From positions 1 through 54,836 of the forward strand of contig CAWVLM010000038.1 in assembly GCA_963930145.1 (NCBI GenBank): a DNA stretch of 54,836 bases, written 5' to 3'. Below are positions 15,230 through 52,974 of the stretch, piece by piece. This DNA is from Clostridia bacterium (lineage in GTDB: Bacteria; Bacillota; Clostridia; Christensenellales; UBA1242). The notes below the pieces were generated by a model. The model had not been told where the DNA came from. It ran no database searches and was given only the letters and a program-made list of their open reading frames with translations. Position numbers and translations under genes: made by a program. Every line of letters starts with the position of its first letter. Positions within the stretch are counted from its first letter, which is position 1.

Positions 15230-15240
15230 AAAGATAAAAA

Positions 15241-17291: not shown

Positions 17292-20200
17292 ATGAAAAGA
17301 AGGTTAAAAGAGAAAAAAGCAAAGAAATCAAGCGGTAAAAAGTGGCCGTTGTGGCTGACTTTCATACTTGTCATTGCAGCGGTAGGTGCTATATCTGGCA
17401 TAACAGTGCTAGGCGTTTATCTTGCAGGTGGTTTTGAAGAGCGAATAATAAACCCAGAGGCAATAGCTTTTTCTTACGATGAAAGTCTATATAATGAAAG
17501 CACAGGGCAACTTGAGGTTACAGATGATTTTACTTTAACTATCACAACTCCAACAGACCCTGTCACAGAAACGGCAGTCACACTTTCTTTCACAAGTGGT
17601 CTTTTCCATAAATTTGATGGGGATGACGGCGTAACATACATAGATAATGAGATAATTCAAGTTCCAGAGGTGGTAACGCTTGGTCAGCCTTTTCAGGTCA
17701 AGCTTATACGCGACAACTATCTTGTAGACAGCGAAGGGAAGGAAATATTAGATGAATATAATCGGTCTATAGATTGGATTGTTGGCGGAATTTCGGTTTT
17801 GCAAGCAAGAAGTGAATATAACATGATAAGTGCAGTCACTTTGCAAATTGCAGTAGATGTTCCTGTATATATGACAGAGACAGTGGCAATCAACTCAACA
17901 ACAGAGACAACAAACCAAATAGTAACAGGCGAGGCGTTCCATCTTGACACAATATTCTACCCAGCAAAGAGTGAATACATATATAGTGATGATGCAAACA
18001 GTAATATTGACGAAGAGAATAAACGTGTAAAACATGCTTACTATCAAGCAATAAATGTGGATGCAAGCAGCCTTTCAACGCGATATGATGGAAGATATGA
18101 TGTAAGTTTTATTGCAGGCGATCAAGCGGTTGATAATATAACCATGATGGGTTATACATTTAGAGATGCTGCAACTCAAATAGCAACAGAAAACCTATAT
18201 ATAGATTCAACAGACGAGCTTTTCTATTCACAGGTTTTAGGATATCTTTTCTCTTCAACAAACGACGTTTCTTCTTCTTTAAATATAAGAATTGGTGCGG
18301 CTAGCGTATATAATTTCACTGTAAGCAAGGCAGGCTCAACAGTATCAATGAACGCAGACAGCACTATGAGAATATATTTAAACCAATATTTATATGACCA
18401 AAGTGCCGAGTTTTTAGGGGTTAATATCTATTCAACATCAGGCTCTATAATTGAAAATATGCTCCCAAACCTAGCACTTTCCTTTGAATACAACGGCTCA
18501 GACCCAACGCTTGATGAAAACGCCTTTTTAACAGTACGCGGCGGTGAAAGCGTTGTGGTAGACGGAGTTACATACTATAAGCCATATTCAAATGTTTCAA
18601 ATTATAACTATAGTTATTGGGATTTATTGTCTTCACAAAACGCAAATATAACAGTTAGCGTTGTGCTTTTAATTGAAAATGAAGATGGTTCTTATTCGCT
18701 TTTTGGAGAGCCTTCTCTTATTTACAATTTCACCTTGTCAGTTGAAAGACATGCCGAGTCTGCAATCTCTTGGGCTGATTCAAGCGATATCGATGTTATG
18801 CTTAACTATAACACCGATGGCAGCATCAATCCTTACACATTAAATTTGGACGGGCTTGTATCTATACCAACAGACAATATCTATCAAAGCTATGTTTTCT
18901 TTGCATACTTTGGTGAAGGAGAAAAGGATGCACTAGTTCCAACAGCAAACACAATCATTGGCTCAACAGGTTATAACTATGATTTAACAGGCTACTATTC
19001 AACAGATATAGATAACCTTATGCTCTTTGCAATAAATGGCAGCACAATCACTCTTCAAAACACAGGCACGTTTAGATTATATTATGCAACAATTATAACA
19101 GAAAATGGTGTTCCTGTATATGAAGAAGACCAAAGCGGAAATAGAACATATCAGATTGCCATGATGTGCAACGAATATATAACTGTAACGTGCGAAAAAT
19201 CTCTTTATCAAGATTCAATTCGTGCTGGCGAGATTGACGTCAGTGCTTTCCCAGAGGTGAATGGCGAAATTGCAATAAATCAAGGTGCAACTCAAACAAT
19301 CAGCGTAACATTTAGGGTGATGGCAGAATCTGTATCTGTATTCCAAGAAGAATACGACAATGGTTATATCAATCTATTTGTAAGAAGTTCGCAAGGTGCC
19401 GATGTAAGTTCATATTTCTCAATAGTAAGCAGAGAATTCTCTATTGATGGAACGTCAGGCGAAGGCGTGCTTAAATATCAAGTCAATGTGAATACTGGAA
19501 TAAGTATAGATATTTTAAATGGAATATATATCTCTCAATTTGTATTAAATTATAATGATAATGATGACACTAACATTGATTGGGTTATAGATGCTCCAGC
19601 CGAAACAAATATTTGTATCTACAGCCCAGTAGCTACCAATCTTGAAATAGCCCCAGAAGGAGCATATGATTACAATAGTTTTATAACAGGCGAGGAAACT
19701 ATCTATGTAAATCAATCTTTAAATGCTGGTGGCAATTTTTCAACAACTATCAGTCTTGGGAATGTTGAACTTAGTAGCGTAACAGAACTTTTGGCAAGAC
19801 TTTTAGGTGCTGACAATAGCTATGTCACAATAACAGACCAAAAAGATAGAATAGATACTCTTGCAGGGAATTGGAAATTTGTTGTTTCAAACGGCTCTGC
19901 TGATGCAGTCAATCTAAACGGACAAACCTTCACCTTCAGACAGGCTAGCGGTGCCGAGGTGACTCTTGCTCTTGCAAGCACTGACGGCAATGCAACGAGC
20001 TTGACAAATGGACAAAGCATAACTTTAAATATCTCATCTGTTGGTGTAACCTATGCCGATAGCACAGATTCACTTGACCCATTTACAAATGATGACTACA
20101 CGGAAGAGACTGATATATCAAACATCGCTGTAAGCAAATATGGTGCAAAGTCAAACAGTGCGACAGACACAATCAACCTAAGCACTCTTGTAAGATTTTA

Positions 20201-23200
20201 TATAGGCGAAGAAGCTGGCAGAACTCAGTATAACAACATACGTTTTCAGCTCAGCCAACAATATCTCAATGACAGCACGCTAACTGATGATATGATTGTT
20301 GACCTATTTGGACCTGACGGCATGCTTACATTATTTAATGAAACAGGCGTTATTTCAGGACTAGACGGCACTGCCGCGTCTATTAGGGCAGCACTAAGCG
20401 GACAGACAATCACAAAAGTTATGATAAATAAAGACTTTGCGGTAGACCATATTATAAGGTTCACCATTTCAGATACAGGAGAAAATGGTGCAATAAGTTC
20501 AACGTTAAGTTTAACGCTACTTTCAAATTTATCAATTTCATCTCAAAACTATCCAAATAATGGTGAAACTTTATATGCAAGTGCAGCTTTAGAACTAGAA
20601 AATACTGTTACGAATAATTATCTTAACTATAAGTCTGGGATTTACGATAATTCTTTTGCTTCACTCTATGATGACGGCGTGTCAATGTATTATATAGTAA
20701 GAAGTGGCAACAATTATATCTTGCAAGATACCATGCCTTCGTCTTATGTGGGAATATTCTATGCCCAAGAAACTAACGTAGGCGGAACATTCATTCCAGC
20801 AGGAACAATCATCTTCTCAGACTTTTGGAACGTTCCATCTCAGACATATTCAATAACATTTACACCAGATGGCGAGAATTACTTTACATTGAGCCGTACA
20901 TTAAGCTTTGTGGTAACTCGCGACCTTGCCATAACTGACCTTGAAAATGTTTACTATATAATGAACGATGGGGCAAACTATGGTATATCAAACTTTGTAA
21001 GTCTGCATAGAATGTCCACAGCAGGCAGCACAGCAGACACAGCCATAAACGGAATCGATGTGGAATATGTATTCTCTGATTATCTAGTTTATGAAAATAA
21101 CAATGTCACAAAGAGCGATGACGCATTCTTTGTATTTGATTATAACACAACTGAGCTTATCACAACCTTAACAATAAATTATCTAGTTCGTGGTGCAAAT
21201 GACATAATATTAAATAGAGTAGAGCTTGGCTCTGTTGAAATCAAAATAAAATTGTATTCTAATGGCGATGATTTTGACCTTTACGAGTATATTGCAAGCT
21301 TAATATCTTATGATTCAAACTACAGCATAAAGGCAGAAGTTCAAAATGTGGGTTCAACAGAATATATAATGCTTCAAGAAGGCACTTGGTTCTTAAATGA
21401 TGACTTTGCTATACTTGGAACAAACAGCTTCAACATCTATGGCAATTTAAGAACATATGCCACAGACGGCAACTCACAATCAACATCTAACTACTTAGGT
21501 GTAACTTATGATTCAACAGGGCACACTGTTATAGATGAAGAAGGCTTGGAAATAACACTAACAGGCACAAGACTTACAACAAGAAATTCAAGTGGCAGAC
21601 TGCTTCAAGGCCTTGATAGTGAAAAACTCTTCCTTGTTGTATACTTTGGTTCTGCAAATGAAAATTATGGCGAGAAGCCAGAATTTCCAGGTTCTATTGC
21701 GGTAATGTACGTGCCAATAGTAATATCATCAATTGGCTATGATTATGTAAATTATGAAAGCGAGCTTGAGGCTAGCAGCAATCTCGCAACCGCCATGACC
21801 GACCCTAATACTCTTATTGAAAATGGTATTTATGATATAGTAACAGCAGGGCAGGTAACACAAATTTTAAGCGAATATACATTCGGTGAAACTGTTGCAA
21901 ATGGCTTATATATGATTACAAATTCAAGTTTATCAGTAAATATCGAATATTATCCTATTGATACAACAGGTTCAGTTCAAACTAATTCTGAAATAGTCAA
22001 ACTTATTTCTATAGAGTCGCAGCAAGTTGGAAGCGGCGAATATGAAAGAGTGGGCAATCTATATCTTAACCACCTTACAAATTCAATTGATGATTTCTAC
22101 CTGGCATTAAGATACACAATTTCAAACTCGAGTGACAGCCGTGAATTTTTCTACGTGCTTAAAGTTATTCCAGATGTCATTGTAGAAGAATCTGTATATG
22201 GCTATAATGGCAATTCAGAATTCTTAGAAAGCGAAGTGAACAGCGAAAATATGGTTGAGCTTGACCATATATTTGGTGCAACCACGCTTAACGAAAATCA
22301 AAAAAGATTCAACATCACAAAAGTTCTTCCACTAGTTGAAGGGTATGCGATAGAAGAAGCTTATAAATATTTAACTATCACAAATGATTCTGAGCAAGTT
22401 ATATCCACTTTAGACGCAATTATACAGCGAGACATGACGATTTCAGTATCTCGCGTGGATGAAAACGATGATGTAACAGGCGACTTGCAGCTTATCACAA
22501 TCACAACACTAGAGCAAATAGTCGACCTAGCAGATTATTTTGAAGATATTGCAAGTGGCGATAGATTTGTAATTGAAATTATTGCAGGTGAAGGTGATTT
22601 ATTCTATAACGGGCAACAGATACAGGTTTCACACGACACCATCACAGACTTGCAAGTCGAGGTCACAGAAGAGATGCAAGTATGGTTTACATTATATAAT
22701 AGTGATAATCAACTTAAGGCAGATTCTCAATTTGTGACTATCACAAAAGATGAACAAACCATTGACCTAATAGAAGTTTTTGCTGAAGCCTTTGATGCAA
22801 TTGAAGATTTTGAAATTGCAACAGGAGACATTCTCACAATCAAGATAATTTCGGGTGAAGGCGATATAATATACAATGGCACAGAAATATTCTCAGATTT
22901 AAAAGAAGAGAACGCTGTTGAAAGTGTTATGGCTGGCGAAGACCTTTATTACACAGAAGAGACATGGTCAGATTATGTAAGAATTTATTTCTCTGAAGAC
23001 TACTCAAAAATGTACTACACGCCATACACAAGCGAGCAGCTTACAATAAACATCAGGCACAGTTATAAGGGTGGGGCACAAGATGATGAGCTAGCCGTTA
23101 TAGGTGGCGAGCAGTACTACACATTCATTCTCAACACAACCACGTATAACTATTCAGTAAGGTTTGCAGAAGATGGCAAATCTCCAGTGATAACAGATGA

Positions 23201-26200
23201 AAACAGCACAACCTACACATGGGAGGTCTCTAGAGAAGATATTTCAGACGCAAGAACGCTTTCTATGGATATAAGATTGCTAGAAGGCTATATTGCAGGT
23301 TCAGCACAGAGCTACACAGAGGTTTGGAATATTCTTGAGATATCTATGACGGGTGAACGAGCAGCAAATCAAGAGATAGGTATGGGCACAGAATCTGCCG
23401 TTGTATCTTTTGATTATGATAATTCTCAAGCAAATCAAGGTCAATTTAATATCACTTTTGCAGATTATATTTCAAGTGATAGACAAATAGAATTCACGCT
23501 CTATACAGAGCAGGGCTATCTTGCAACACTTATAATAAACATATCAGCAACTGCAAGTTATGAGATTATTGCAGGAAACAGCACTTTGCTTGGCGGAAAC
23601 TCATACCAATTTAATAATGTGTTTGCTATCAGTCTAAACGGCTCAGAAACACCACTTTCTGGCAGTGACTATATAGTCACCTTAGATTCAATCACAAGTT
23701 CGTCTAAGGATATAAATGGCTTTGATGGCACAGACTTTATCATATTTGATGAAAATGCAACATTTATAGTTGCAGACCTTATCAGAGACTATAATGTAAC
23801 GCTCAGCTTTATAGTTACATTTGCAGAAAGTGCAGGCTCAAGTTATGTCAACCAAGTATTCACATTCACAGCAACGTTAACTCTTGGTCGAAATGTTACC
23901 TATAAAACAAGTGCAAACGGCGGAGCTGTTCTTGCAGGCGAAGATTTAGAAATATACGAGAGCGGCATATTTAACACAAACCATAGTTATGAAAATACAG
24001 AAATCGTATATAATGGTTCATCTTCAAGTCCAGCCTTTGCGTCAATAGAAGGAACAACAATTCATACAAACTATATTGCAAGCGACACAAATGTTGATGT
24101 AAACATGATTGTCACATTATATTTTAATTATTCAAACGCTCACACTCTAACAAATGTGGCATACCAAACCTTTACAATAACCTATTCGTTCAACGCATAT
24201 AAGAGCGTAACGCTTGACGCTAAGTATCCTTCTCCTAATGGCGAAGCTCTCACAAGAGAATATCTAGATGATGGCACATCATTTACAAATATTCTAACAG
24301 GTTTCATTTTGCATAAGCCAGCCTTCAATCAAACCGAAGGTGGAGAGCCATTAAACAGAATTACAATCAAAAAAGGCAATAGAAAGGGCACGCAACTTGA
24401 ATACGAAGATATAATATCAAGTATAACAGACACAAACAACCTTTCAATTTCAATTATTGCCATGTCAAACGCAAGTGTCTATACCGATACTGTTAAAGTG
24501 AATGACGGTGCTGATGAAAATGATACAAACTATGTGGTAAGCAGCGAAATTGAATATAACAAAAACATCACCTTTAAACGTGGCACTTGGACATCCACAA
24601 AGACCGAAAATGGCACAAAAATATCTTTCAACGATAACGGGAATGACTCCTATGTAACATTTAGAATAACCTATCAAGAAGTGTCTTGTGACTATACAGT
24701 CTATATTCTTGCAAACTCTATAATTGCTCAAATAAACTATACAAGTGCAAACGTTGCAAGTGGCAATTATTCAGATGGCGATAGCTCAATACTAGTATCC
24801 TATGAAACTCTATATGTCGACAAAACTTCAACGACCGCTTTGTTCGGGCAAAACAGAATGGCAAGCGTTGTGTTTAGCAATGACCTTGCAGTCACAGGCT
24901 CATACTATATTGTATTTGCAGCTGAAAGCAACTATAGCACTGATAGCAGCACAAATTTCTATGCATCATATCCACAATATATAAGCTCAAGTAATGCAGG
25001 GCAGATAGCAAATATAGACCTTGGTTACAGCATGGCAAAGGACGGGAACGACTTTGTATATGTTGGCACCTATGAAGTTGCAGCTTTTGAGAGCAATATG
25101 CTTACAGTTGCCGAAAATGGTTTGATTGCGAAAGCAGGCTCAACACAAAACAATGCGGCAACGTGGGCAGATATCAATAAACTCACGAATAGTGATGCAA
25201 ATCAAAGAATATTCACAAGTTTAACTCTCACTCATAGAATAGAACTTGTCTATGGCGGCTCAAATGGCGTGCCTATTGCATATAGTTATTATGGCAATAT
25301 GCTTGCTAACTTTGAGTTTATCAAAGGCTCAACTATAAATTATAAACTTGACACAATAAACGGAATATCAGTATTCGGCTCGTCGTCTCTTAATAAAGAA
25401 GATGGCAGCACAAAAGCCGAAGTTATATTCTCCTTAAATTACTACTTTAAGCCAAGTATAGATATTGACGTAGATGAAAAGATATCAAGCCAGAATAACT
25501 ATATTGAACTTGAGGTAAACTATGAAATTCCAAGTATGGTAGAGCTCTTTGGCGTTCGTCACCCAACAACAGGAGAATATATCAATGAAGCCGATTTCGG
25601 AGCTGGTAAGGCTAATTTAAGTTTTGAAAGTGTAAATTATCAAGTAAATAATAAATTAAATACTGTTGATGAATCTTATCAAGATATCCTTGACGGGTAT
25701 ATCTCAACCTATAATTTTGCAGACGAAGGCTTTAGGATTCAAGCACAAGACGATGGTACAAATAAATATGTATATCTATTCTCATCAGCCATCCTAAACG
25801 CAGGGCAATATGCCTATGACTATATGCTGCTGCCACTTGGTGCAGATAATCAAGGTGACTTTGTTCTCACAAGACTTGCTTATACCGTTCCATTAGATGG
25901 GACAACACTGTCCTATGAAAAGGAATTTTATATCGTAGTTAAAGTCGTTCCAGATTATCAAATAACCTATGGTGGAAATGTTGTAGAAAATGACTTAAAT
26001 AGTGACGCAGTCACAAATCAAGGCAATCCATACAATATTGTAAGCCTTACAACAGATTCAAATACAAATATAACTCATTATAGTGAATTTACTTTAACAA
26101 GCTCCAGCACCGTAACAGATGGACATGTTTCTGTAAGACATACCAATGGTGATAACACCTCGGTAGAACTTGCAACTTCCAACTTCACGATAACAATGGC

Positions 26201-28226
26201 TGTTCCAGGCACAACAATAGAAGGTATTGAATATAATAATGCAACAAATATAAATCAAAAATTGCAGGCTGATTTAAATAGGGCTTGGGGAAAAAGTAAT
26301 AACACATACACATTGAAGGAGGGATTTAACACGACCTTCACATCAGCAAAAGAAGTAATTTTTGGGACTCAATATTACTACATTCAAGCGGTAGACCCAT
26401 ATGGTTTCACATATATTCTATATTTCAGCTTACAATCATCTTATTCAGAACCTGACATAAAAGCTGATACTATTTCGCTTACCGAACTTGGCTATATTGA
26501 CTTTGGTGCTCAATATGAGCTTATCAGTGTTCAAGAAGTGGTAAAAGATGATGAAACAGAATTCTATATCAATTCACAAACCTATCCACCTGAAACCACA
26601 GACGCATCAGTTCAACTTGTTGAAATCACAGGCATTGAGGCCTATCTGTTCAGTGCCGATCCAACAGGTATAGGCGGAATATCCCAAAAAGAGAAGGGTG
26701 GTGGTTATGAAATAACAAACACTGAAGATCAAAACAAATGGCCAAACTATAACGAAGACATCTCTTATTTTGAAGTTCCGATGCTAAACTATGTAACAGT
26801 TGACTCAATTATGTTCTATGATATGGACGATAATGCAATTATAAAAAATGCTATAGAGCCAACAAAAATAGGAACGGAAAGCGGCTATACTCTTGCTACA
26901 ACCACAAGTTCATCAGGCGAAGAAAGTGGCATGGCAATCTATAACGGTCTTGGCACAAATAACACAGGTCGTCTTCCTTATGAAAACCCAGGGGAAGATA
27001 AGAATAACCTAGTTGATGGGCAACAATATTTGCCATTCCAAGTTCCGCGTATCACAGATACAAGTTTATTTGAAGATAGCAACACCGCCCAAGCACAAAT
27101 GGTTGTTAGACTTAAATATAAAAAAGACACAACAATAGAATATTATGACTTAAAGGTTAATGTAACTATCACAAGAGAAGTCACGATCATGTCAAATGAA
27201 GGTGCTTCACCTGTCAGAGATGGTGTAGGCTTTAATTTGAGTGGCGAATTTGAAGTAACAAGCGGTGGGGACAAATTGGATAGTAAGAAAGTTACATACC
27301 TAAATGATACACTTGAAGTTCTTGTCAATGGCGGGCAATCAACATCGTTTGAGATGTATCTATATAGAGACGACAGTCTATATAATAATACTCCGGCAAT
27401 TGTTGATATATCTAACACAGGCAATAGTTGGGCGAGAACAGAGTATATTTCAATATCACAGTATTTAAGAACCAATGTACAACTTGGTGATGAAATACAA
27501 ATTGTTCCACGCGATCAAAATGCAACATTCTATTATGTATATAATAATGGTGCAAGTGCAACATACTATCAATATCAAGTATTTGCTAAAGCGGATGGTT
27601 CTCTTGCAATTAAACAGGCGGGCAGGCCAAATATAGAATGTAACATTCTAATAAGGGAAATAGCTCAAGATGTTATCTATGTTGAAAACGCATCACTACT
27701 TGAGGCTAGAAATTATTATAACGTAAGAAAATACTATATTGTCAGCGTAAACTTTGGCGGAAGCGGCAGTGCAACTCCATTTAACTATAGAGTTTCTAAA
27801 AATTATTATGTAACTGGAAGATATTTCATGCTGCAACGCAATTATACAGCCCAAGATATCATACCATCTATCAATTGCACAGAATATCAAGGTCAGCGTA
27901 TATCGCTTCTTGCCCAATGGTCAGGCACAGCTTATTTCAGTCTCCACTATGCTACTAGTGAGCTTCAGCCAGATACTACTAACACTATAGGGCTATCTTC
28001 AGCAGCTTCAGTATTAACCTTTACTCTTGATGCAACAGATGGTGCGTCTGGTAATGCTGAGGTTAGTGATAATGGAACGATTACATTCTATAATTCATTT
28101 ACTTATGATCAATATGTAAAGATTATCATTAGAATGAAAGTTTCGGGAGCTGATAGAGAAATCAGTGATGATGGCGGACTTGTCACGCTTGGCACGTTAA
28201 AACTTCGCTGGAAAGAAAAATTTTAA
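17292..28226 (+). CDS. Giant (3644 aa) N-terminally membrane-anchored surface protein, no recognisable domain
   Basis: Uninterrupted 10.9-kb ORF. K-rich cytoplasmic head (MKRRLKEKKAKKSSGKK) followed by one TM (WPLWLTFILVIAAVGAISGITVLGVYLAGG). The rest is T/S/N/Y/I/V/G-rich. No LPXTG-like C-terminus. Confidence 0.85.
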   Translation: MKRRLKEKKAKKSSGKKWPLWLTFILVIAAVGAISGITVLGVYLAGGFEERIINPEAIAFSYDESLYNESTGQLEVTDDFTLTITTPTDPVTETAVTLSFTSGLFHKFDGDDGVTYIDNEIIQVPEVVTLGQPFQVKLIRDNYLVDSEGKEILDEYNRSIDWIVGGISVLQARSEYNMISAVTLQIAVDVPVYMTETVAINSTTETTNQIVTGEAFHLDTIFYPAKSEYIYSDDANSNIDEENKRVKHAYYQAINVDASSLSTRYDGRYDVSFIAGDQAVDNITMMGYTFRDAATQIATENLYIDSTDELFYSQVLGYLFSSTNDVSSSLNIRIGAASVYNFTVSKAGSTVSMNADSTMRIYLNQYLYDQSAEFLGVNIYSTSGSIIENMLPNLALSFEYNGSDPTLDENAFLTVRGGESVVVDGVTYYKPYSNVSNYNYSYWDLLSSQNANITVSVVLLIENEDGSYSLFGEPSLIYNFTLSVERHAESAISWADSSDIDVMLNYNTDGSINPYTLNLDGLVSIPTDNIYQSYVFFAYFGEGEKDALVPTANTIIGSTGYNYDLTGYYSTDIDNLMLFAINGSTITLQNTGTFRLYYATIITENGVPVYEEDQSGNRTYQIAMMCNEYITVTCEKSLYQDSIRAGEIDVSAFPEVNGEIAINQGATQTISVTFRVMAESVSVFQEEYDNGYINLFVRSSQGADVSSYFSIVSREFSIDGTSGEGVLKYQVNVNTGISIDILNGIYISQFVLNYNDNDDTNIDWVIDAPAETNICIYSPVATNLEIAPEGAYDYNSFITGEETIYVNQSLNAGGNFSTTISLGNVELSSVTELLARLLGADNSYVTITDQKDRIDTLAGNWKFVVSNGSADAVNLNGQTFTFRQASGAEVTLALASTDGNATSLTNGQSITLNISSVGVTYADSTDSLDPFTNDDYTEETDISNIAVSKYGAKSNSATDTINLSTLVRFYIGEEAGRTQYNNIRFQLSQQYLNDSTLTDDMIVDLFGPDGMLTLFNETGVISGLDGTAASIRAALSGQTITKVMINKDFAVDHIIRFTISDTGENGAISSTLSLTLLSNLSISSQNYPNNGETLYASAALELENTVTNNYLNYKSGIYDNSFASLYDDGVSMYYIVRSGNNYILQDTMPSSYVGIFYAQETNVGGTFIPAGTIIFSDFWNVPSQTYSITFTPDGENYFTLSRTLSFVVTRDLAITDLENVYYIMNDGANYGISNFVSLHRMSTAGSTADTAINGIDVEYVFSDYLVYENNNVTKSDDAFFVFDYNTTELITTLTINYLVRGANDIILNRVELGSVEIKIKLYSNGDDFDLYEYIASLISYDSNYSIKAEVQNVGSTEYIMLQEGTWFLNDDFAILGTNSFNIYGNLRTYATDGNSQSTSNYLGVTYDSTGHTVIDEEGLEITLTGTRLTTRNSSGRLLQGLDSEKLFLVVYFGSANENYGEKPEFPGSIAVMYVPIVISSIGYDYVNYESELEASSNLATAMTDPNTLIENGIYDIVTAGQVTQILSEYTFGETVANGLYMITNSSLSVNIEYYPIDTTGSVQTNSEIVKLISIESQQVGSGEYERVGNLYLNHLTNSIDDFYLALRYTISNSSDSREFFYVLKVIPDVIVEESVYGYNGNSEFLESEVNSENMVELDHIFGATTLNENQKRFNITKVLPLVEGYAIEEAYKYLTITNDSEQVISTLDAIIQRDMTISVSRVDENDDVTGDLQLITITTLEQIVDLADYFEDIASGDRFVIEIIAGEGDLFYNGQQIQVSHDTITDLQVEVTEEMQVWFTLYNSDNQLKADSQFVTITKDEQTIDLIEVFAEAFDAIEDFEIATGDILTIKIISGEGDIIYNGTEIFSDLKEENAVESVMAGEDLYYTEETWSDYVRIYFSEDYSKMYYTPYTSEQLTINIRHSYKGGAQDDELAVIGGEQYYTFILNTTTYNYSVRFAEDGKSPVITDENSTTYTWEVSREDISDARTLSMDIRLLEGYIAGSAQSYTEVWNILEISMTGERAANQEIGMGTESAVVSFDYDNSQANQGQFNITFADYISSDRQIEFTLYTEQGYLATLIINISATASYEIIAGNSTLLGGNSYQFNNVFAISLNGSETPLSGSDYIVTLDSITSSSKDINGFDGTDFIIFDENATFIVADLIRDYNVTLSFIVTFAESAGSSYVNQVFTFTATLTLGRNVTYKTSANGGAVLAGEDLEIYESGIFNTNHSYENTEIVYNGSSSSPAFASIEGTTIHTNYIASDTNVDVNMIVTLYFNYSNAHTLTNVAYQTFTITYSFNAYKSVTLDAKYPSPNGEALTREYLDDGTSFTNILTGFILHKPAFNQTEGGEPLNRITIKKGNRKGTQLEYEDIISSITDTNNLSISIIAMSNASVYTDTVKVNDGADENDTNYVVSSEIEYNKNITFKRGTWTSTKTENGTKISFNDNGNDSYVTFRITYQEVSCDYTVYILANSIIAQINYTSANVASGNYSDGDSSILVSYETLYVDKTSTTALFGQNRMASVVFSNDLAVTGSYYIVFAAESNYSTDSSTNFYASYPQYISSSNAGQIANIDLGYSMAKDGNDFVYVGTYEVAAFESNMLTVAENGLIAKAGSTQNNAATWADINKLTNSDANQRIFTSLTLTHRIELVYGGSNGVPIAYSYYGNMLANFEFIKGSTINYKLDTINGISVFGSSSLNKEDGSTKAEVIFSLNYYFKPSIDIDVDEKISSQNNYIELEVNYEIPSMVELFGVRHPTTGEYINEADFGAGKANLSFESVNYQVNNKLNTVDESYQDILDGYISTYNFADEGFRIQAQDDGTNKYVYLFSSAILNAGQYAYDYMLLPLGADNQGDFVLTRLAYTVPLDGTTLSYEKEFYIVVKVVPDYQITYGGNVVENDLNSDAVTNQGNPYNIVSLTTDSNTNITHYSEFTLTSSSTVTDGHVSVRHTNGDNTSVELATSNFTITMAVPGTTIEGIEYNNATNINQKLQADLNRAWGKSNNTYTLKEGFNTTFTSAKEVIFGTQYYYIQAVDPYGFTYILYFSLQSSYSEPDIKADTISLTELGYIDFGAQYELISVQEVVKDDETEFYINSQTYPPETTDASVQLVEITGIEAYLFSADPTGIGGISQKEKGGGYEITNTEDQNKWPNYNEDISYFEVPMLNYVTVDSIMFYDMDDNAIIKNAIEPTKIGTESGYTLATTTSSSGEESGMAIYNGLGTNNTGRLPYENPGEDKNNLVDGQQYLPFQVPRITDTSLFEDSNTAQAQMVVRLKYKKDTTIEYYDLKVNVTITREVTIMSNEGASPVRDGVGFNLSGEFEVTSGGDKLDSKKVTYLNDTLEVLVNGGQSTSFEMYLYRDDSLYNNTPAIVDISNTGNSWARTEYISISQYLRTNVQLGDEIQIVPRDQNATFYYVYNNGASATYYQYQVFAKADGSLAIKQAGRPNIECNILIREIAQDVIYVENASLLEARNYYNVRKYYIVSVNFGGSGSATPFNYRVSKNYYVTGRYFMLQRNYTAQDIIPSINCTEYQGQRISLLAQWSGTAYFSLHYATSELQPDTTNTIGLSSAASVLTFTLDATDGASGNAEVSDNGTITFYNSFTYDQYVKIIIRMKVSGADREISDDGGLVTLGTLKLRWKEKF

Positions 28227-35649: not shown

Positions 35650-36015
35650 ATGGCAAAAATTAAGTCAAAAAAACAAAATATCGGTATTTTTGCAATAATT
35701 TTTTTGCTCGTGCTTGGTGGTGTTGCTGGGGTTTTTACAGCAAAACATATAACTCGCAACGATGTTTTTGAGATAATTGGCGAGCAAACCATCACCTTAA
35801 GCGTGGGTGAAACTTATCAAGATGAAGGTGCAAAAGCGGTATCTTTTGGCAAGGACATCTCGTCAAAGATAGTCAGTGAAAATAATATTGATTATTTAGC
35901 TGTTGGCACCTATTATATAAGATACACCGTTGATGATATAAGATATCGCGGCATAGAGCGGTATAGGGTTATTATTATTGAAGCGTCAAGCGAGGTGAGC
36001 GATGAAGGTGTTTAA
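35650..36015 (+). CDS. Membrane-anchored protein with a bacterial Ig-like (DUF5011-type) domain
   Basis: N-terminal TM, then ITLSVGETYQDEGAKAV...DYLAVGTYYIRYTV, which is typical of Ig-like DUF5011 domains. AAAGGAG RBS. Confidence 0.65.
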   Translation: MAKIKSKKQNIGIFAIIFLLVLGGVAGVFTAKHITRNDVFEIIGEQTITLSVGETYQDEGAKAVSFGKDISSKIVSENNIDYLAVGTYYIRYTVDDIRYRGIERYRVIIIEASSEVSDEGV

Positions 36016-37132
36016 GTGGCTTGGCGGGTTTTTTCTTGCCTTAATAATTCTTGCAATAGGGTTTGCAGCTGGCTTTGCGATTGATATTTTTATTATTGAC
36101 AAACCGAAAACAGAAACCTTTATAAGCGGTGATTTATCAATACACTTTTTGCAACTTGGAAATAAATACACAGGCGACAGCGTTTATATTAAGTGTGGCG
36201 AAAATGACATATTGATAGATGCAGGCTCTCGCAATGACTCTTCATCCACAATTATAGACTATGTTGACGAGTATGTCACCGATAACACTCTTGAATATGT
36301 GATTGCAACGCATGGGCATGAAGACCATATTGCGGCATTCTATAGCGAGGCAGACAGAACAGGAATATTTGACTACTATCAAGTTGAAAATATAATTGAT
36401 TTTCCACTTACAAACAGCAGTGCAACATCAAGAACTGTTGTAGGTAAATACTATGCTGCTCGTGACAAAGAAATCGCGGAAGGAGCAAATCACTGGACTG
36501 CACTTGAGTGCTATAACAACGAAAATGGTGCAAGCAGGGTGATACAGCTTTCTAGTGATGTCGAACTTGAGATTTTATATAATTATTATTATGACCACAC
36601 TCAATCATCAGGCGAAAATGACTATTCAGTGTGTGTTATGATAAATCAAGGCGACAACCATTATCTTTTCACTGGCGACCTTGAAAAGCGGGGAGAAGAA
36701 AGGCTTGTTGAATATTATGCAGAAAACCACGGCGGACTTCCACATTGCGTATTGTATAAAGCAGGGCATCACGGCTCAAAAACTTCAAGTTGCCCTTTAC
36801 TTATGGAGACAATCACGCCTGAATATGTTTGCGTATGCTGCTGTGCGGGAACAAGCGAATATACCGACAATCCAGAAAATCAATTTCCAACGCAGGAGTT
36901 TATCGATAATGTTGCTCCATACACAGACAACGTCTACGTCACATCAATGGTAGATAATTATGTCGATAAAGCTGATTTTTCAGCACTTGGCACGGTAAAA
37001 CCCATGAATGGCAATATAGTTTTCACCGTTTCAGGCAATACCATAACAATAGAATTTAGCGATAGCGACCTAAAACTGAAAGATAGCGATTGGTTTAAAA
37101 ATAACCGAACTTGTCCATCAACTTGGCAATAA
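36002..37132 (+). CDS. Membrane-anchored MBL-fold hydrolase (ComEC C-terminal-domain-like)
   Basis: HGHEDH metal motif, downstream GHHGS, N-terminal TM. Overlaps the previous gene by 14 nt. Confidence 0.75.
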   Translation: MKVFKWLGGFFLALIILAIGFAAGFAIDIFIIDKPKTETFISGDLSIHFLQLGNKYTGDSVYIKCGENDILIDAGSRNDSSSTIIDYVDEYVTDNTLEYVIATHGHEDHIAAFYSEADRTGIFDYYQVENIIDFPLTNSSATSRTVVGKYYAARDKEIAEGANHWTALECYNNENGASRVIQLSSDVELEILYNYYYDHTQSSGENDYSVCVMINQGDNHYLFTGDLEKRGEERLVEYYAENHGGLPHCVLYKAGHHGSKTSSCPLLMETITPEYVCVCCCAGTSEYTDNPENQFPTQEFIDNVAPYTDNVYVTSMVDNYVDKADFSALGTVKPMNGNIVFTVSGNTITIEFSDSDLKLKDSDWFKNNRTCPSTWQ

Positions 37133-37173
37133 AATTTTAATACAATTTCTCCAAACTTTAATTGTTTTTAAAG

Positions 37174-37210
37174 ATTGTTAATTAAAAATTCATTAACAAT
37201 TTTTTTTTTA
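37174..37210 (+). terminator. Intrinsic terminator of the MBL hydrolase operon
   Basis: ATTGTTAAT-TAAAAATTC-ATTAACAAT, a 9-bp stem followed by T9. Confidence 0.75.
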
Positions 37211-37318
37211 TATTTCAATGTGTTTAGCGTTGTTCTTTTAAGTTAATTTAGAATTTGTAAGGTTTATATGAAATATTTGCAAGTGAATCACAATGGCTAA
37301 ATTTGTATGCATACTATA

Positions 37319-37414
37319 CACGCGAATGGGAGAGCTTTTTGTAAACCAAAAAGCTCTCCAAAAGGCACAAAAGTGCCTTTTACAAACTCTCGCGAGAGTT
37401 TGTTCATTCGCGTG
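37319..37414. other. Four-way-junction 'cloverleaf' module A (96 nt)
   Basis: A 10-bp outer stem encloses three contiguous hairpins of 12, 9 and 11 bp. Pairings were verified base by base (see findings). Confidence 0.7.
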
Positions 37415-37490
37415 CAAATTTTTATAAATAACTACTATATAATATTCATTAAAAAAATTTAAAAATTTTTAAAAAAATTGTTAAATTTGC

Positions 37491-37518
37491 TTGACACGCG
37501 TTGCGGGGGGGGTAAACT
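37491..37518 (+). promoter_or_regulatory. Promoter with a G8 tract in the spacer
   Basis: TTGACA (37491-37496), 16-nt spacer CGCGTTGCGGGGGGGG, TAAACT (37513-37518). Confidence 0.5.
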
Positions 37519-37524
37519 AATAGC

Positions 37525-38035
37525 ATAAAGATAGTCGCCGTATGGCGACTATCGCGAGCGGCGAGCCAAATGCTCGGCGGCCGATAGGTTGAGTTAGAAA
37601 AATAAAACCTTTTCCGCTCTTTTGAAACAGACAAAATTAGATGTTATGTATGTACTATACGATAGAAAGTGGCTAAGCCACCAAACATCTAGTTTTCCGC
37701 GAGTGTGAGAAGGCACGTGTTGTTTTGCATTTTGCAGAACAACACAGAAGGCAAAAACTTTTGCCTTTAAAAAACATATAGTTTTTTGTGCCTTCTCATG
37801 CTTGAAGCTCGCTCGAAAATGTTGGCTACCTAGTTGTTAAGCACTTAAAAAGTGTGACATTTGTCACAGTTGAAAATTTTTTTAAAAATCTTTAATTTTG
37901 TGACGTCATCGTGCCGTCACCCTTGAGACAAAGGGGTTACGAAAGTGCTAGAATATGACTAAGATATGCAAAAAAGGTCGAATTTTGCATAAAACTATAG
38001 CGTTTAAACAAAATAAAGAAAAATCTAAAATTTAA
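37525..38035 (+). ncRNA. Candidate large structured RNA or highly structured 5' leader of the DUF6273-like gene
   Basis: About 510 nt with no credible ORF, packed with perfect hairpins and multi-branch junctions, and richer in GC than other intergenic DNA here. Strand is inferred from the promoter only. Confidence 0.4.
37706..37798. other. Four-way-junction 'cloverleaf' module B (93 nt)
   Basis: 11-bp outer stem TGAGAAGGCAC/GTGCCTTCTCA enclosing hairpins of 12, 8-9 and 7 bp. Confidence 0.7.
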
Positions 38036-38049
38036 AAGGAAGGTAAAAA

Positions 38050-39408
38050 ATGAGTCTTAAAATCAAACTTATGTCAGCAATTTCAGCATTTATCTTAGTG
38101 CTAAGCATGCTGCTCGTTGGAGTTTTGGCAGCAACGCAAACGATTAACCTTAAAGGAACAGTAAACTTTAATGTTTCAGATTCAACGTTATATCTAAAAG
38201 ATATGCGTATTCAAACTGAGAGTACAGGGCAAGATAGCACAGCTGATAATTTTATGCCAGGCTTTATTAGTGGAGAAATAGATATAAATTTAGGCACAAT
38301 TTCTTCATCAAGTGGCTCAGTCAATATATACTTTGACTTTGTAAATACCACTTCAACAATGTATCAAGCTTCGCCAACAGGCGGCAGCGGAGTAACCTTA
38401 TCAACAAGTGGAATGATAGCGGGCTCTCAAGTTGCAATTGGAGACGTTACAACAGCAGATATCTCAGGCACAATAATTTTAACAATACAATTCACTGGCT
38501 CAAGCAGCGTTGATTTAGATGGAATATCAATCTCGTTTAATGAATATTCGCCATACGAGAGAGTAGATGCAGATGACAATCCAGATCCAAATGGAGATTA
38601 TCTATACTTTGGATATTACCCGCAAACAATAAAGACAGCAGATGTTACAGTTGGCTCAGCTCCAGAATCAAATGGCTATTATTTAGGTAGTGACGGAGAA
38701 TATTATGCAAAAGTCTCAGCAAACCCTTTTGACAGTAATTATACCTTTTCAGATGGCACTACAATAGTTTCAGGCACAGAATATTATTTTAAAGTTGAAC
38801 CTTTAAGATGGCGTATTTTAGATGATGCCTATGGTGATGGAACAGCACTTATTGTATGTGATTCAATAATAAATGCAATGTCATTCCAATCACAAGTTAA
38901 GAATAATGAAGATGATGGATATAACTACGTCATAGATGATTCAGGTGAATATATATTAGATAAAGATGGAAATAAAGTTTACGCAAATAACTATGAGTAT
39001 AGCGAAATTAGAGCGTATTTAAACAATGATTTCTATAACAGTGCGTTTAGTAATGGAGAACAAACAATCATTGTTACAACCGAAGTTGATAATAGTTTAG
39101 AATCAGCTGGCGTTATGAGTGATCAAAAATACATTTGCAATAACACTTATGATAAAGCATTTTTATTGAGCTATGCAGACATTGAAAATTATGGGTTGCA
39201 TCCCCAACTCTCAGGAACATTTGATTTTATAACAAGTGATTATAGTCGTGCTTCAGGCATAATTATGGAAGTGAGATACCAACCATTAGGCGTAGGGCGT
39301 TCATACACACGTTCACCTTTTGGTTATGAATACGGAGGAAATTATGGATTAGATGTGATTTCCGTATCAGGGGGGCTACTGGGAATTCTTCAGCAAATTC
39401 CAACTTAA
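38050..39408 (+). CDS. Secreted DUF6273-like protein (W-L-R-S-P type module), C-terminus probably frameshifted at a G6 tract
   Basis: AAGGAAGG RBS. Signal peptide MSLKIKLMSAISAFILVLSMLLVGVLAA. LRWRILD ... YTRSP module. The expected family tail is in the adjacent frame (see finding). Confidence 0.8.
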   Translation: MSLKIKLMSAISAFILVLSMLLVGVLAATQTINLKGTVNFNVSDSTLYLKDMRIQTESTGQDSTADNFMPGFISGEIDINLGTISSSSGSVNIYFDFVNTTSTMYQASPTGGSGVTLSTSGMIAGSQVAIGDVTTADISGTIILTIQFTGSSSVDLDGISISFNEYSPYERVDADDNPDPNGDYLYFGYYPQTIKTADVTVGSAPESNGYYLGSDGEYYAKVSANPFDSNYTFSDGTTIVSGTEYYFKVEPLRWRILDDAYGDGTALIVCDSIINAMSFQSQVKNNEDDGYNYVIDDSGEYILDKDGNKVYANNYEYSEIRAYLNNDFYNSAFSNGEQTIIVTTEVDNSLESAGVMSDQKYICNNTYDKAFLLSYADIENYGLHPQLSGTFDFITSDYSRASGIIMEVRYQPLGVGRSYTRSPFGYEYGGNYGLDVISVSGGLLGILQQIPT

Positions 39409-39461
39409 CTGGTCTTCTTCCCGCCATGCAAATTCAACTATAAAAAATTATCAACACACAC

Positions 39462-42760: not shown

Positions 42761-42773
42761 CATGCATACTATA

Positions 42774-42895
42774 TGGTGCGTCGCAAGGGGTCGACGCGTT
42801 AAGAAAACTTGGCGGTGTCCAAGTTTTTAGCAAAAGACGGGTGAAATTAACTTTCACCCCGCCGGAACGGGCGAACCTTGGTTCGAATCCCTTAA
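42774..42895 (-). other. Unassigned ~120-nt structured element ending in a tRNA-Arg-derived acceptor mini-helix + ACCA
   Basis: Minus strand carries hairpins CGAACC/GGTTCG, GGGTGAAA/TTTCACCC and AAAACTTGG/CCAAGTTTT, then GCGTCG-ACCCCTTG-CGACGC-ACCA. It lies between tRNA-Arg and the terminator. Confidence 0.45.
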
Positions 42896-42920: not shown

Positions 42921-42997
42921 TGGTGCGTCGCAAGGGATTCGAACCCCTGACCTTTCGTTCCGTAGACGAACGCTCTATCCAGCTGAGCTAGCGACGC
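42921..42997 (-). tRNA. tRNA-Arg (anticodon ACG), CCA encoded
   Basis: Reverse complement GCGTCGC-TA-GCTC-AGCTGGATA-GAGC-G-TTCGT-CTACGGA-ACGAA-AGGTC-AGGGG-TTCGAAT-CCCTT-GCGACGC-A-CCA folds as a canonical cloverleaf. Confidence 0.95.
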
Positions 42998-47645: not shown

Positions 47646-49070
47646 ATGGCAACACTAGATACAGTAACATCAGTAATCATAACACTACTTGGGCTATTTT
47701 ATGCTTATAACGTTTTATATCTTATTTTAGGATTTTTTGGAAAAAGCAAGACATATGAAGAAACTGATGTAAAGAAAAAATATGCAATAGTTATCTCAGC
47801 ACGAAATGAAGAGCGGGTTATAGGCAACCTTCTTGACTCGCTAAATAAACAAAATTATGATAAAAAACTTATAACAATATTTGTGGTGGCGGATAACTGC
47901 ATAGATAACACCGCTAAAATTTGTCGCTCAAAAGGTGCTATTTGTTATGAAAGATTTGACCCAAGCAAAGCTCGAAAGGGCTGGGCACTTGAATTTCTTT
48001 TTGACAATATAAAGCGTGACTATGGAATAGAAGCCTTTGACGGCTATATTATCTTTGACGCAGATAATGTTGTAGAGCCCACTTTTGTCAGCGAAATAAA
48101 CAAAGCAATGGTAAAACAGGCGGGGGGGGTGGTAATAGGCTACCGCAATACAAAAAACTTTTCAACTAATGTTATTTCTTCAGCCTATGGCTTTCATTTT
48201 GGAAGAAGTATTCTTACAAGGCATCGCCCAAGACAGGTATTGCACTCTTCAACACACCTTGCAGGCACAGGCTACTGCATCTCATCAAATCTATTGAAAG
48301 ATGGATGGCATTTCCATACTTTAACTGAAGATACCGAGTTTACTATGGACTGCGTAAGTAAAGGTATTACCATAGGTTATTGCGAAGCGGCAGAGTTTTA
48401 TGACGAGCAGCCGACTAACTTCTTTGTAGCCTTCAGACAACGTATGCGTTGGACTCGCGGCAGACTTGTGGTGTTTTTTAAATATTTCTTCCGCCTTGTC
48501 AAAGGTATGTTCACTTGCAAGAAGGGCAAGAAATGGGCAAATTATGATATGCTTTCTTATGTTTCACCCAACGCTCTTTTCAAACTTGCTATAAGTGCAA
48601 TTTATCCAATCACGGCAGCTATTATTTCACTTGTAAACCATCAAGCTCTGCCTTATATCACTTGGCTTTCAGCGATAGGCAGCAGCCTGCTTTCAACCTA
48701 TCTTATGGATTTCTTTCAAGGTATTTTAATCTTGATAAAAGAAAGAAAACATATAAAATGCTCAAAAGTCAAGCAGGTTTTATATTTGTTTTGTTGGCCG
48801 TGGTTTGATATAATCAATATACCTTTACTTATTTTATGTTGCTTTATTCCTGTAAAGTGGAAACCTATCGTACATAAAGACACAACAAAAATAGAAGATT
48901 TGTCAAGCACGCAAATATCTGAAGAAAGTTTAGCTCCAAATTGCCAGAAAAACACTTTGATTTGCAAAAAATATACGCCTCTCAAGCAAATTCCAGACAT
49001 TTTAGCACGAGACTATAAATTCGTGCTTGCAAACTATAAGAATATAAATTTATCTATAAGGAAGACCTAA
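47646..49070 (+). CDS. Processive family-2 glycosyltransferase (membrane-embedded synthase type)
   Basis: IIFDADN (DxD), TLTEDTE, QRMRWTRG (QxxRW), TM helices at both ends. Starts 7 nt after the helicase stop. Contains an in-frame G8 tract. Confidence 0.85.
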   Translation: MATLDTVTSVIITLLGLFYAYNVLYLILGFFGKSKTYEETDVKKKYAIVISARNEERVIGNLLDSLNKQNYDKKLITIFVVADNCIDNTAKICRSKGAICYERFDPSKARKGWALEFLFDNIKRDYGIEAFDGYIIFDADNVVEPTFVSEINKAMVKQAGGVVIGYRNTKNFSTNVISSAYGFHFGRSILTRHRPRQVLHSSTHLAGTGYCISSNLLKDGWHFHTLTEDTEFTMDCVSKGITIGYCEAAEFYDEQPTNFFVAFRQRMRWTRGRLVVFFKYFFRLVKGMFTCKKGKKWANYDMLSYVSPNALFKLAISAIYPITAAIISLVNHQALPYITWLSAIGSSLLSTYLMDFFQGILILIKERKHIKCSKVKQVLYLFCWPWFDIINIPLLILCCFIPVKWKPIVHKDTTKIEDLSSTQISEESLAPNCQKNTLICKKYTPLKQIPDILARDYKFVLANYKNINLSIRKT

Positions 49071-52873: not shown

Positions 52874-52974
52874 ATGTCTAGCAGCGTACGTCTTTTGCAA
52901 TGCAAAAGCCGTCAAAACGCTTTTCAAGCGTTTTTGCAAGCATAGCCATGCTTGCCGCTGCTAGACATTTTTTA
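52874..52974. other. Four-way-junction 'cloverleaf' module C (95 nt) plus a T run; may also serve as the terminator after the LtaS-family gene
   Basis: 13-bp outer stem ATGTCTAGCAGCG/CGCTGCTAGACAT enclosing three hairpins of 7-11, 9 and 8 bp, followed by TTTTT. Confidence 0.7.

Follow-up and report, generated by a model that had tools for sequence, protein, structure and literature searches.

Stem-loop structures that stabilize bacterial transcripts are known from both ends of the mRNA, namely the 3′ barriers of the repetitive extragenic palindrome (REP) type and the 5′-terminal hairpins protecting the mRNAs of Firmicutes. Furthermore, long structured 5′ leaders with tandem promoters precede the genes of abundant surface (S-layer) proteins in Gram-positive bacteria. 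Here, a spacer of this general kind was analyzed, which is located at positions 37133–38049 of a 54,836-nt contig of a Clostridia bacterium (CAWVLM010000038.1, in the following called the window) between a gene coding for an MBL-fold hydrolase and a gene coding for a DUF6273-domain protein. The feature proved genuine, uncatalogued and unusually rich in structure, and it is built from parts of known kinds, i.e., a structured leader, terminator or stabilizer modules and a promoter with a homopolymer. Most likely, with belief and doubt about evenly balanced, it is a promoter-autonomous, nuclease-resistant leader of the DUF6273 gene, possibly tuned by a poly-G tract, in which perfectly paired four-way junctions (cloverleaves) serve as stabilizer or terminator modules.

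DUF6273 is a C-type-lectin-like domain, which was described in phage receptor-binding proteins and in the targets of diversity-generating retroelements (DGRs) (PMC10743442; 10.1101/2024.10.15.618418). Poly-G tracts in promoter spacers set the expression of tp0126 and tprL in Treponema pallidum and of porA in Neisseria meningitidis (PMC7864442). For tprL of T. pallidum, a run of G8 is permissive and a run of G10 nearly silent (PMC7864442).

The spacer contains no credible open reading frame (ORF); the longest one has 61 amino acids and overlaps palindromes. A first-pass annotation had described it as gene-free and dense in hairpins, and the features listed there were recovered at, or within 1–2 nt of, the positions given. 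In a sliding minimum free energy (MFE) scan of 120-nt segments, positions 37261–37830 top the whole 54.8-kb window, with GC-corrected residuals down to −6.3 standard deviations. The folding z-scores given here were calculated against dinucleotide shuffles, and the part 37515–37830 reaches a z-score of −9.1. In addition, three of the four plus-strand copies of the hexamer CGCGAG in 55 kb are located in the spacer, at 37391, 37553, and 37698.

The promoter P1 (Table 1) is the best promoter-like site of the region, with 10 of 12 consensus matches. Its TTGACA and TAAACT boxes had already been pointed out in the first-pass annotation, and the promoter turned out to be conserved ahead of every DUF6273 homologue examined. 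The motif TTGACA-N8-GGGGGGGG-TA(A/T)A(A/C)T, with a 16-nt spacer and an A/T tract on its 5′ side, was found ahead of the DUF6273 genes of nine lineages. Related loci are designated by L numbers in the following. P1 with G8 is kept in L006, L082, L086, L087-92, L093, L095-97, and L098-100, the exception being L084/L085, two nearly identical contigs that differ from each other within the run and carry GGCGGGGGGG and GGAGGGGGGG with an 18-nt spacer and the interrupted run GG(C/A)GGGGGGG. The distance between P1 and the start codon ranges from ~66 nt in L087, 92 nt in L098, 180 nt in L006 and 258 nt in L086 to 306 nt in L093, 385 nt in L082 and 531 nt in the window. A second promoter-like site, P2, lies closer to the gene, and its arrangement (GAGACA-18-TAnAnT) is kept in L082 and L083. 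The statement of the first-pass annotation that no terminator precedes the DUF6273 gene is borne out by a consensus scan, in which no canonical terminator was found on the plus strand from P1 to the gene. Because nothing terminator-like lies between them, a leader of ~530 nt is the simplest reading.

Based on this, block 2 of the spacer (~37466 to 38049) would be the control region of the DUF6273 surface-protein gene. The A/T tract and the near-consensus, presumably strong sigma-70 promoter P1 are expected to start a transcript ~530 nt ahead of the start codon, and P1, when it fires, would read through into the DUF6273 gene. Along this leader, the 5′ hairpin, a cassette-specific unit, a Y-shaped module and junction B would follow one another, with P2, as second promoter close to the gene, and a conserved hairpin nearer to the gene. 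Both the 5′ hairpin and the junctions with their perfect pairing may block RNases of the 5′-3′ RNase J type as well as 3′-5′ exonucleases, and they may also be RNase III sites. Such nuclease roadblocks would lead to a long-lived mRNA and to expression independent of neighboring transcription. Junctions with a U-run behind them (A, C, L002, and L093) would terminate and insulate transcription, and the G8 run would tune or switch expression.

Cloverleaf B has a z-score of −10.1, lies within the predicted P1 transcript and carries no U-run. In the folds of both the window and L082, an outer stem of GCGAGC (~37554) with GCTCGC (~37807) can enclose the preceding block together with B. The junction is kept in L084 and also in L082, in spite of only 62% protein identity of the latter. 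In the alignment A3, 98.4% of the cells are paired, against 38–56% when the partners are slid by 1–3 columns. At five pairs both partners have changed, compared with 1.7 in shuffles (3 of 500), and four one-sided changes proceed via G·U on the sense strand. Compensatory changes in homologues are present for B in a relative with 62% identity, and together with the G·U pairs of the sense strand they point to selection on the RNA fold.

The G8 run in the spacer of P1 was overlooked in the first-pass annotation, as was the third cloverleaf, C, of the window. A homopolymeric tract inside the −35/−10 spacer, present here as G8, is a feature of phase-variable promoters. As a change of the run length alters the −35/−10 spacing, the tract is a candidate for a slipped-strand "rheostat." A second G8 run was found at 48122–48129, inside the intact ORF of a family-2 glycosyltransferase (47646–49070), so that two G8 runs are present in 55 kb of a genome with 36% G+C. 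This would be a classic arrangement for a surface-glycan gene that undergoes phase variation by frameshift. The invariance of G8 at P1 seems to weaken the phase-variation reading, whereas the difference in L084/L085 and the G8 of the glycosyltransferase seem to support it. A pairing of the G8 run with UUUCCGC of the cassette-specific unit was rejected, as both are complementary on paper, but no consistent partner appears in the MFE folds of the nine lineages. Sites of the form TTGAC-N9-G8-or-longer-TAnAnT were also observed in several phage contigs of the IMG/VR database (L101-L116), four of them in one 208-kb contig, and one family of these P1-like sites has attgcTTGACTTCGGAGTAGGGGGGGGTAGAAT in common. 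In viral contigs the P1 pattern is near chance, with 16 matches against a rough estimate of ~7.

A predicted hairpin opens the presumed P1 transcript in L084, L087, L093, and L095, as in the window, and in L082, L086, L098, and L006 predicted hairpins begin further into the transcript. In L087 (3934–3975), L093 (2696–2770), and L095 (2694–2765) a hairpin is combined with a T-run, and its stem covaries between the lineages. The 5′ arm of this hairpin (AGGGTA...) begins right after the −10 box of P1, 5′ of the likely start site. In these three loci, transcripts reading through from upstream would form the full terminator, and P1 transcripts probably would not. In three DUF6273 lineages, perfect DnaA-box 9-mers (TTATCCACA) lie within the P1 leader or close to it (L093 2721–2729; L098 1603–1611 and 1914–1922; L086 593–601), with no replication genes nearby, and copies with one mismatch (TTATCAACA) are present in L086 and in the window at 39448–39456.

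In the cassette-specific unit of ~64 nt, a hairpin whose stem covaries and whose loop is conserved precedes the sequences ATTGTCCG, GTTTAAAC, and TATTTCCGCTC. Variants of the stem include CCAAAC/GTTTGG, CCAACC/GGTTGG, CGAAC/GTTCG, and CGAGC/GCTCG. With an nhmmer profile, the unit was found solely upstream of DUF6273 genes and always in sense orientation except for one antisense copy. L093 has three copies, L095 and L098 have two each, L082 has one sense and the antisense copy, and the window and L084 have one each. In the window, the local fold of the unit is energetically at chance (z −0.76), yet the sequence unit is conserved in the relatives. Of the two junctions that the first-pass annotation had proposed in this part of the leader, the one with the 13-bp stem, here called Y-shaped module, stands out from shuffled sequences, whereas the three-way junction closed by GAGCGG and CCGCTC, which corresponds to the unit, does not. 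The sequence AGCGGA as 5′ partner of the unit's TTTCCGCT motif was discarded, since L093, L095, and L098 lack it and only the window, L084, and L082 have it. In L082, both copies of the unit, sense and antisense, are located in an ORF-free region (2960–3400, z −3.6) 5′ of P1, where GAGAGCGGAGAA and TATTTCCGCTCTC form a 12-bp long-range stem around them. This is a larger version of what the window has reduced to 64 nt.

The remaining modules of the leader are conserved to different degrees. The hairpin AAAGTGGC-N3-GCCACC of the Y-shaped module is conserved, with a 92.6% match at L082 3306–3332, and recurs in L093. The 139 nt between the CGCGAG repeats are replaced by ~5 nt in L082. The segment 37840–37925 has a z-score of −2.25, and of its two small hairpins the second one (GTGACG/CGTCAC) is kept in L082, the first one is not. 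Finally, the proximal hairpin ATGCAAAA...TTTTGCAT is kept in L082 and, with a G·U variant, in L083.

The four-way junctions were also analyzed as a class, using a descriptor with a closing stem of ≥7 bp, three hairpins of ≥6 bp, linkers of ≤2 nt and ≤1 defect per helix. Over 857 kb, 23 strand-hits scoring ≥33 were obtained at ~13 sites, against 0 in dinucleotide shuffles. With identical thresholds, a closing stem with three hairpins was found at nine real sites and no shuffled ones, a closing stem with two hairpins at nine real and five shuffled sites and a closing stem with four hairpins at none of either kind. The enrichment is therefore specific to the four-way junction. Convincing sites are A, B, and C in the window and those in L002, L012, L021, L073, L084 (B), L082 (B), L086, L093, L095, and L098. 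Lower-scoring descriptor hits in L004, L005, L007, L009, L010, L011, L027, L029, and L069 and at 15224–15328 of the window were rejected, since on inspection they turned out to be coding sequence, ordinary terminators rich in A/T or folds that did not convince.

The positions of these junctions differ. C is the sole terminator-like structure between a sulfatase-family (LtaS-like) gene and the alanine racemase gene. The junctions of L093 and L095 are located directly after the stop codon of rpe and are followed by T6, in a spacer without any other terminator. The mutually homologous junctions of L012 and L021 are placed precisely between one gene's stop codon and the ribosome-binding site of the next gene. 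The junction of L086, with a closing stem of 27 bp, lies ~190 nt upstream of P1, and that of L098 in the spacer downstream of the DUF6273 gene. A U-run follows the junction in A (T5), C (T6), L002, and L093 (T6), and is lacking in B, L012, L021, L086, and L098. In the helices, sense-strand G·U pairs and A·C mismatches stand at 8 to 2. The hairpin words AGGCAAAA, AAACTC, and AAATTTTTAA recur and define at least two sequence-related subgroups; the junctions of C, L073, and L093 show no sequence relationship. An over-representation of the recurrent words in the manner of uptake signals was not seen, and literature searches for branched terminators and for cloverleaf repeats of this kind yielded no relevant report.

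A tentative explanation, which we regard as possible and distinctly less than probable, is that these junctions form a new class of the uncultured gut Clostridia, defined by architecture (perfect four-way junctions of 80–125 nt with exactly three hairpins and linkers of 0–2 nt) and working with a specific partner. The junctions would then turn over fast, be kept by compensatory change and be recruited as branched terminators, intercistronic punctuation or leader modules. They would cluster around exchangeable DUF6273 surface-lectin genes with their G8 promoter and private 64-nt unit. In that case they could belong to an uncharacterized system of expression or variation, in which, e.g., a specific RNase or a junction-binding protein recognizes the junction.

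Upstream of the promoter, block 1 of the spacer (37133 to ~37465) would comprise the signals at the 3′ end of the MBL-fold gene, a plain terminator followed by cloverleaf A. The plain terminator is not flagged by the consensus scan, because its stem has fewer than three G-C pairs. Cloverleaf A, which was also recovered by the descriptor scan, has an MFE of −57.6 kcal/mol (z −10.6) and is followed by T5 at 37419–37423, 4 nt past the stem. A syntenic cloverleaf with a T-run is located at the position of A in L002 (6299–6399), which matches A in architecture and differs from it in most of its sequence. A itself is absent from L084, where the rest of the region is 97% identical. It may act as a second, branched terminator or insulator; alternatively, it could be a small stand-alone RNA of ~100 nt. 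The 12-mer ATGCATACTATA next to A has only one other exact copy in the window, at 42762–42773, which abuts a duplicated tRNA-Arg 3′ end. With a further copy containing one mismatch, this makes three occurrences, against 0.44 expected at ≤1 mismatch, and three or more were obtained in 0 of 100 shuffles. The 3′-terminal 16 nt of the tRNA-Arg gene (TGGTGCGTCGCAAGGG, 42921–42936) are duplicated at 42774–42789, with 131 structured bases in between. This duplication is suggestive of a scar or att pair left by a very small tRNA-integrated element.

The first-pass annotation was unable to match the spacer to OLE, GOLLD, ROOL, raiA, a T-box or any riboswitch class, and Rfam 15 contains no match for it either. 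At gathering score, the tRNA-Arg alone was found in the window and nothing in 37133–38049. At E ≤ 10, the best match in 36900–38300 scores 22 bits, where the gathering score is 80, and is noise below the threshold. No match was obtained in the corresponding regions of relatives (12 related regions in all, with L082, L093, and nine other loci among them). As a positive control, the OLE model detects a true OLE RNA in the relative L006, which shows that the tool works. This OLE RNA (L006 10759–11137, 219 bits, cut by the end of the locus) is located a few kb from the MBL/DUF6273 locus, and its presence assigns the clade to the OLE-bearing anaerobic Firmicutes. A tRNA or tRNA-like element was likewise rejected, as ARAGORN and Rfam RF00005 find only 42921–42997, and the arms of A, B, and C have 7–17 bp with unconserved loops, in place of the 7/4/5/5-bp arms and the conserved D and T loops of tRNA. 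In plasmid and phage collections no DNA similar to the spacer was found, only chance A/T matches.

Eighty loci around homologues of the MBL gene, from metagenome-assembled genomes of uncultured Clostridia, were compared by BLAST. No sequence homologue of the spacer was found in these loci, even at 89% protein identity, and homologues surfaced only with the DUF6273 gene as anchor. The DUF6273 gene is missing in L002 (MBL protein 89% identical) and in L003 (80%), the latter also being without a cloverleaf. L084/L085 share the synteny of the window: they are 97% identical from 37466 on and 85% in the MBL gene, and 37135–37465 is unalignable. A sliding comparison with L084 gave 94–100% identity from ~37466 to ~40200 and 82–90% outside, with a dip to 76% in the spacer just 3′ of the DUF6273 gene. 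This tract of ~2.7 kb (L084 3410 to ~6150) comprises the DUF6273 gene with its promoter and leader as well as part of a rubrerythrin gene. A tract of high identity within more diverged flanks indicates recent homologous recombination between lineages, with the left edge just 5′ of the promoter.

L082 has different neighbors and 62% protein identity, and is 79% identical in the promoter region and 77% from cloverleaf B to the gene. It lacks 37559–37697, pieces of which lie 5′ of the promoter there and in other relatives. More distant DUF6273 homologues (43–50% identity) are located in unrelated contexts (rpe/PHP-whiA-dnaE, sigma-70/rpsL, and rubrerythrin/YcxB), and in every context examined they have an ORF-free upstream region of 340–930 nt. 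P1, cloverleaf B, the unit, P2 and the proximal hairpin are conserved in relatives; module order, module presence and leader length vary. The first-pass annotation had proposed either a large structured RNA or a leader of ~525 nt. The strong structure and the leader, here ~530 nt, stand; the single conserved RNA does not, since the relatives show that the spacer is a composite mosaic.

Table 1. Features in and around the spacer, with positions in the window.
Feature	Position	Strand	Description
MBL-fold (ComEC-C-terminal-like) hydrolase gene	36002–37132		5′ neighbor of the spacer
Simple intrinsic terminator of the MBL-fold gene	37170–37212	+	A/T-rich stem ATTGTTAAT...ATTAACAAT, then T10; read from the sequence and also listed as an inverted repeat (I25)
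12-mer ATGCATACTATA	37307–37318	+	Abuts cloverleaf A
Cloverleaf A, perfect four-way junction	37319–37414	+	Closing stem 10 bp; hairpins 13, 9, and 9 bp; linkers 0–1 nt
A/T tract resembling an UP element	37445–37490	+	Directly 5′ of P1; equivalent tract in L082, L084, and L086
Promoter P1	37491–37518	+	TTGACA, 16-nt spacer ending in G8 (37505–37512), TAAACT
10-bp hairpin GATAGTCGCC-GTAT-GGCGACTATC	37530–37553	+	~5 nt from the presumed P1 start site; z −4.65
CGCGAG-flanked block	37553–37703	+	Direct repeats 37553–37558 and 37698–37703
DUF6273-specific unit	37556–37619 (profile match 37568–37619)	+	Hairpin CGAGC-CAAAT-GCTCG, end TTTTCCGCTC, closed by GAGCGG/CCGCTC
Y-shaped module	37633–37696	+	13-bp closing stem, two 5-bp hairpins; z −3.16
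Cloverleaf B, four-way junction	37700–37804 (core 37705–37799)	+	Closing stem 10–17 bp; hairpins 13, 9, and 7 bp
Two small hairpins, TGTGAC-ATTT-GTCACA and GTGACG-N9-CGTCAC	37853–37920	+	A/T tract between them
Promoter-like site P2	37925–37954	+	GAGACA-18-TAGAAT, TG 5′ of the −10 box; consensus scan
5′-UTR (untranslated region) hairpin TATGCAAAA-N9-TTTTGCATA	37965–37991	+	Not significant by energy alone
Predicted ribosome-binding site AAAGGAAGG	~38035–38043	+	5′ of the DUF6273 gene
DUF6273-domain gene	38050–39408	+	452 aa, N-terminal signal or anchor sequence; Pfam PF19789, E 2.3e-13
Cloverleaf C	52874–52969	+	Closing stem 13 bp; hairpins 10, 9, and 8 bp; then T6; z −8.4

Several points weigh against a stabilized leader of the DUF6273 gene as explanation. 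The start site of P1, the read-through, the stability of the RNA and the termination are all deduced from the sequence. The cassette-specific unit lies 3′ of P1 in the window and L084 and 5′ of P1 in the other loci, for which the favored explanation does not account. The G8 run is invariant in eight of nine lineages; a fixed promoter feature would explain this as well as, or better than, a hypermutable tract, and the different run in L084/L085 could be a read error in poly-G. The helices of the junctions are 97% Watson-Crick paired, which is typical of terminators and DNA palindromes and atypical of old functional RNAs, so that the four-way junctions may have an origin or a function at the DNA level. 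Furthermore, B is without a U-run and both hairpin orders relative to the neighboring genes occur (L086 and the window); a mechanism tied to one orientation does not account for every copy of the junction. The covariation of B comes from only three sequences, two of them nearly identical.

The near-pure Watson-Crick pairing is also what would be expected if the cloverleaves and the 139-nt block were small non-autonomous mobile or self-propagating DNA palindromes, like miniature inverted-repeat transposable elements (MITEs), REPs or elements resembling bacterial interspersed mosaic elements (BIMEs), and the spacer an insertion hotspot with little or no host function. We consider this unlikely; a possible variant is that three-hairpin elements insert into the loops of existing terminator hairpins. 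The patchy occurrence (A in the window and L002, not in L084 and L003; the block in the window and L084, not in L082), the two hairpin orders relative to the flanking genes, the direct CGCGAG repeats around the block and the unrelated closing stems, whose inner hairpins nevertheless share the recurrent words, would all fit such insertions. However, A, B, and C share almost no sequence, and a BLAST search of the spacer against the 55-kb window finds only self-palindromes and A/T tracts. Neither terminal inverted repeats nor a transposase or RAYT gene was seen near the locus, and there is no clean empty site. In addition, an enrichment for exactly three hairpins is unexpected from a random nesting of palindromes, and B is kept over 62% protein identity with compensatory changes and sense-strand G·U pairs.

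It is decidedly unlikely that P1 drives a stand-alone small RNA (sRNA) of ~300–370 nt (~37525 to 37830–37890), which would be processed or end ahead of P2 and act in trans or as a protein sponge, with the DUF6273 gene transcribed from P2 only. The most stable folds do lie all between P1 and ~37830, P2 and its hairpin are conserved separately, the outer stem can enclose the block and B, and a weak hairpin followed by T7 is present at 37853–37883; but this hairpin is not kept in L082, a canonical terminator is missing between P1 and P2, and the content from P1 to the gene is not conserved as a unit. As P1 is only ~66–92 nt away from the start codon in L087 and L098, which leaves no room for an sRNA, it seems to be primarily the promoter of the gene. 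Very improbable is a single large conserved non-coding RNA of the OLE, GOLLD or ROOL type spanning 37133–38049, which would explain the length, a G+C content above that of other spacers and the extreme folding z-scores. The two halves of the region differ in their history (37135–37465 is unalignable in L084, with the rest at 97%), the close relatives L002 and L003 are without nearly all of it, the order of the modules differs between relatives, and there is no Rfam match although the OLE model works on L006. Surface-protein genes of gut bacteria are often controlled by invertible promoters, and the promoter-bearing segment 37490–37864 is indeed flanked by 35-nt inverted repeats (37455–37489 and 37865–37899; repeat I1, 83% complementary). 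An inverton is scarcely credible here, as the arms are low-complexity A/T sequences that match equally well as direct repeats (D1, D2, and D7), the segment has the same orientation in all relatives (window, L082, and L084) and no recombinase gene adjoins the locus.

Two further systems were rejected. As for a DGR, a BLAST search of the DUF6273 gene against the window gave only the self-hit and no template repeat. As for a retron RNA, the cloverleaves A, B, and C are flanked by the genes for the MBL-fold hydrolase, the DUF6273 protein, the sulfatase-family protein and alanine racemase, and no reverse transcriptase gene adjoins them. No reverse transcriptase was found among the 20 ORFs scanned, which cover the window from 28272 to its end. 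A phage origin of the DUF6273 gene was discarded, since it has no relatives in IMG/VR. Elsewhere in the window, a single ORF of 3644 aa is located at 17292–28226.

If the junctions are functional, they would extend bacterial terminators and mRNA stabilizers to branched, four-armed forms. Standard terminator finders miss such structures, as the consensus scan reported neither A nor C. Functional junctions would also mark a lineage-specific way of insulating and stabilizing the expression of lectin-like surface proteins in abundant uncultured gut Clostridia. The TTGACA-N8-G8-TAAAAT promoter and the private 64-nt unit provide handles to find such genes in metagenomes and would allow a read-level test of poly-G-dependent expression. 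They also raise the question of how the DUF6273 family is regulated, which is otherwise known mainly as a domain of phage receptor-binding proteins and DGR targets. Should the junctions be selfish palindromes instead, the locus would still be a clean example of the growth of a spacer to ~1 kb by modular insertion.

In architecture, the cloverleaves can be compared with several known RNAs. Like the enterovirus 5′ cloverleaf, an element of eukaryotic RNA viruses, and like tRNA, they consist of a closing stem and three stem-loops in ~90 nt, and B would lie near the 5′ end of its RNA; the likeness is one of architecture only. Unlike in these RNAs, neither sequence nor loops are conserved, and the stems are two to three times as long as those of tRNA. 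The msr-msd RNA of retrons has a closing a1/a2 stem around short hairpins and one long hairpin, which the junctions resemble in one orientation with their closing stem, two short hairpins and one longer hairpin. Here, however, the "long" hairpin has only 26–33 nt, and by their position the copies would act as terminators and within a leader. With REP, BIME, and MITE elements the junctions share the intergenic location, the palindromic and mosaic or modular structure and the variable presence between close relatives, but there is no repeated consensus in the window, no transposase was seen, and the pairing is kept by compensatory change.

With intrinsic (Rho-independent) terminators and stem-loop stabilizers the junctions share their location, being found in spacers after stop codons (C and L093), between cistrons (L012 and L021) and, as B and the hairpin at 37530–37553, toward the 5′ end of a leader. 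As in these elements, the sequences are diverse, the structure is the defining property and the pairing is almost purely Watson-Crick, and in A, C, L002, and L093 a U-run follows right after the closing stem. In contrast to an intrinsic terminator, the "loop" of the closing stem is made of three perfect hairpins with linkers of 0–2 nt, which gives a junction of 80–125 nt.

The promoter P1 resembles the phase-variable promoters of T. pallidum and N. meningitidis in having a G8 run between the −35 and −10 boxes ahead of a surface-protein gene. Compared with the G8 and G10 variants of tprL, most lineages have G8 with a 16-nt spacer here, and one lineage has an interrupted run of 10 nt with an 18-nt spacer; unlike at usual contingency loci, the run length is identical in eight of nine diverged lineages. 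Finally, the locus as a whole is comparable to the leaders of S-layer genes, with two tandem promoters, a long leader with a paired 5′ end and a secreted surface protein encoded downstream. Unlike these, the leader is far longer and modular, and contains a four-way junction as well as a cassette-specific repeat unit.

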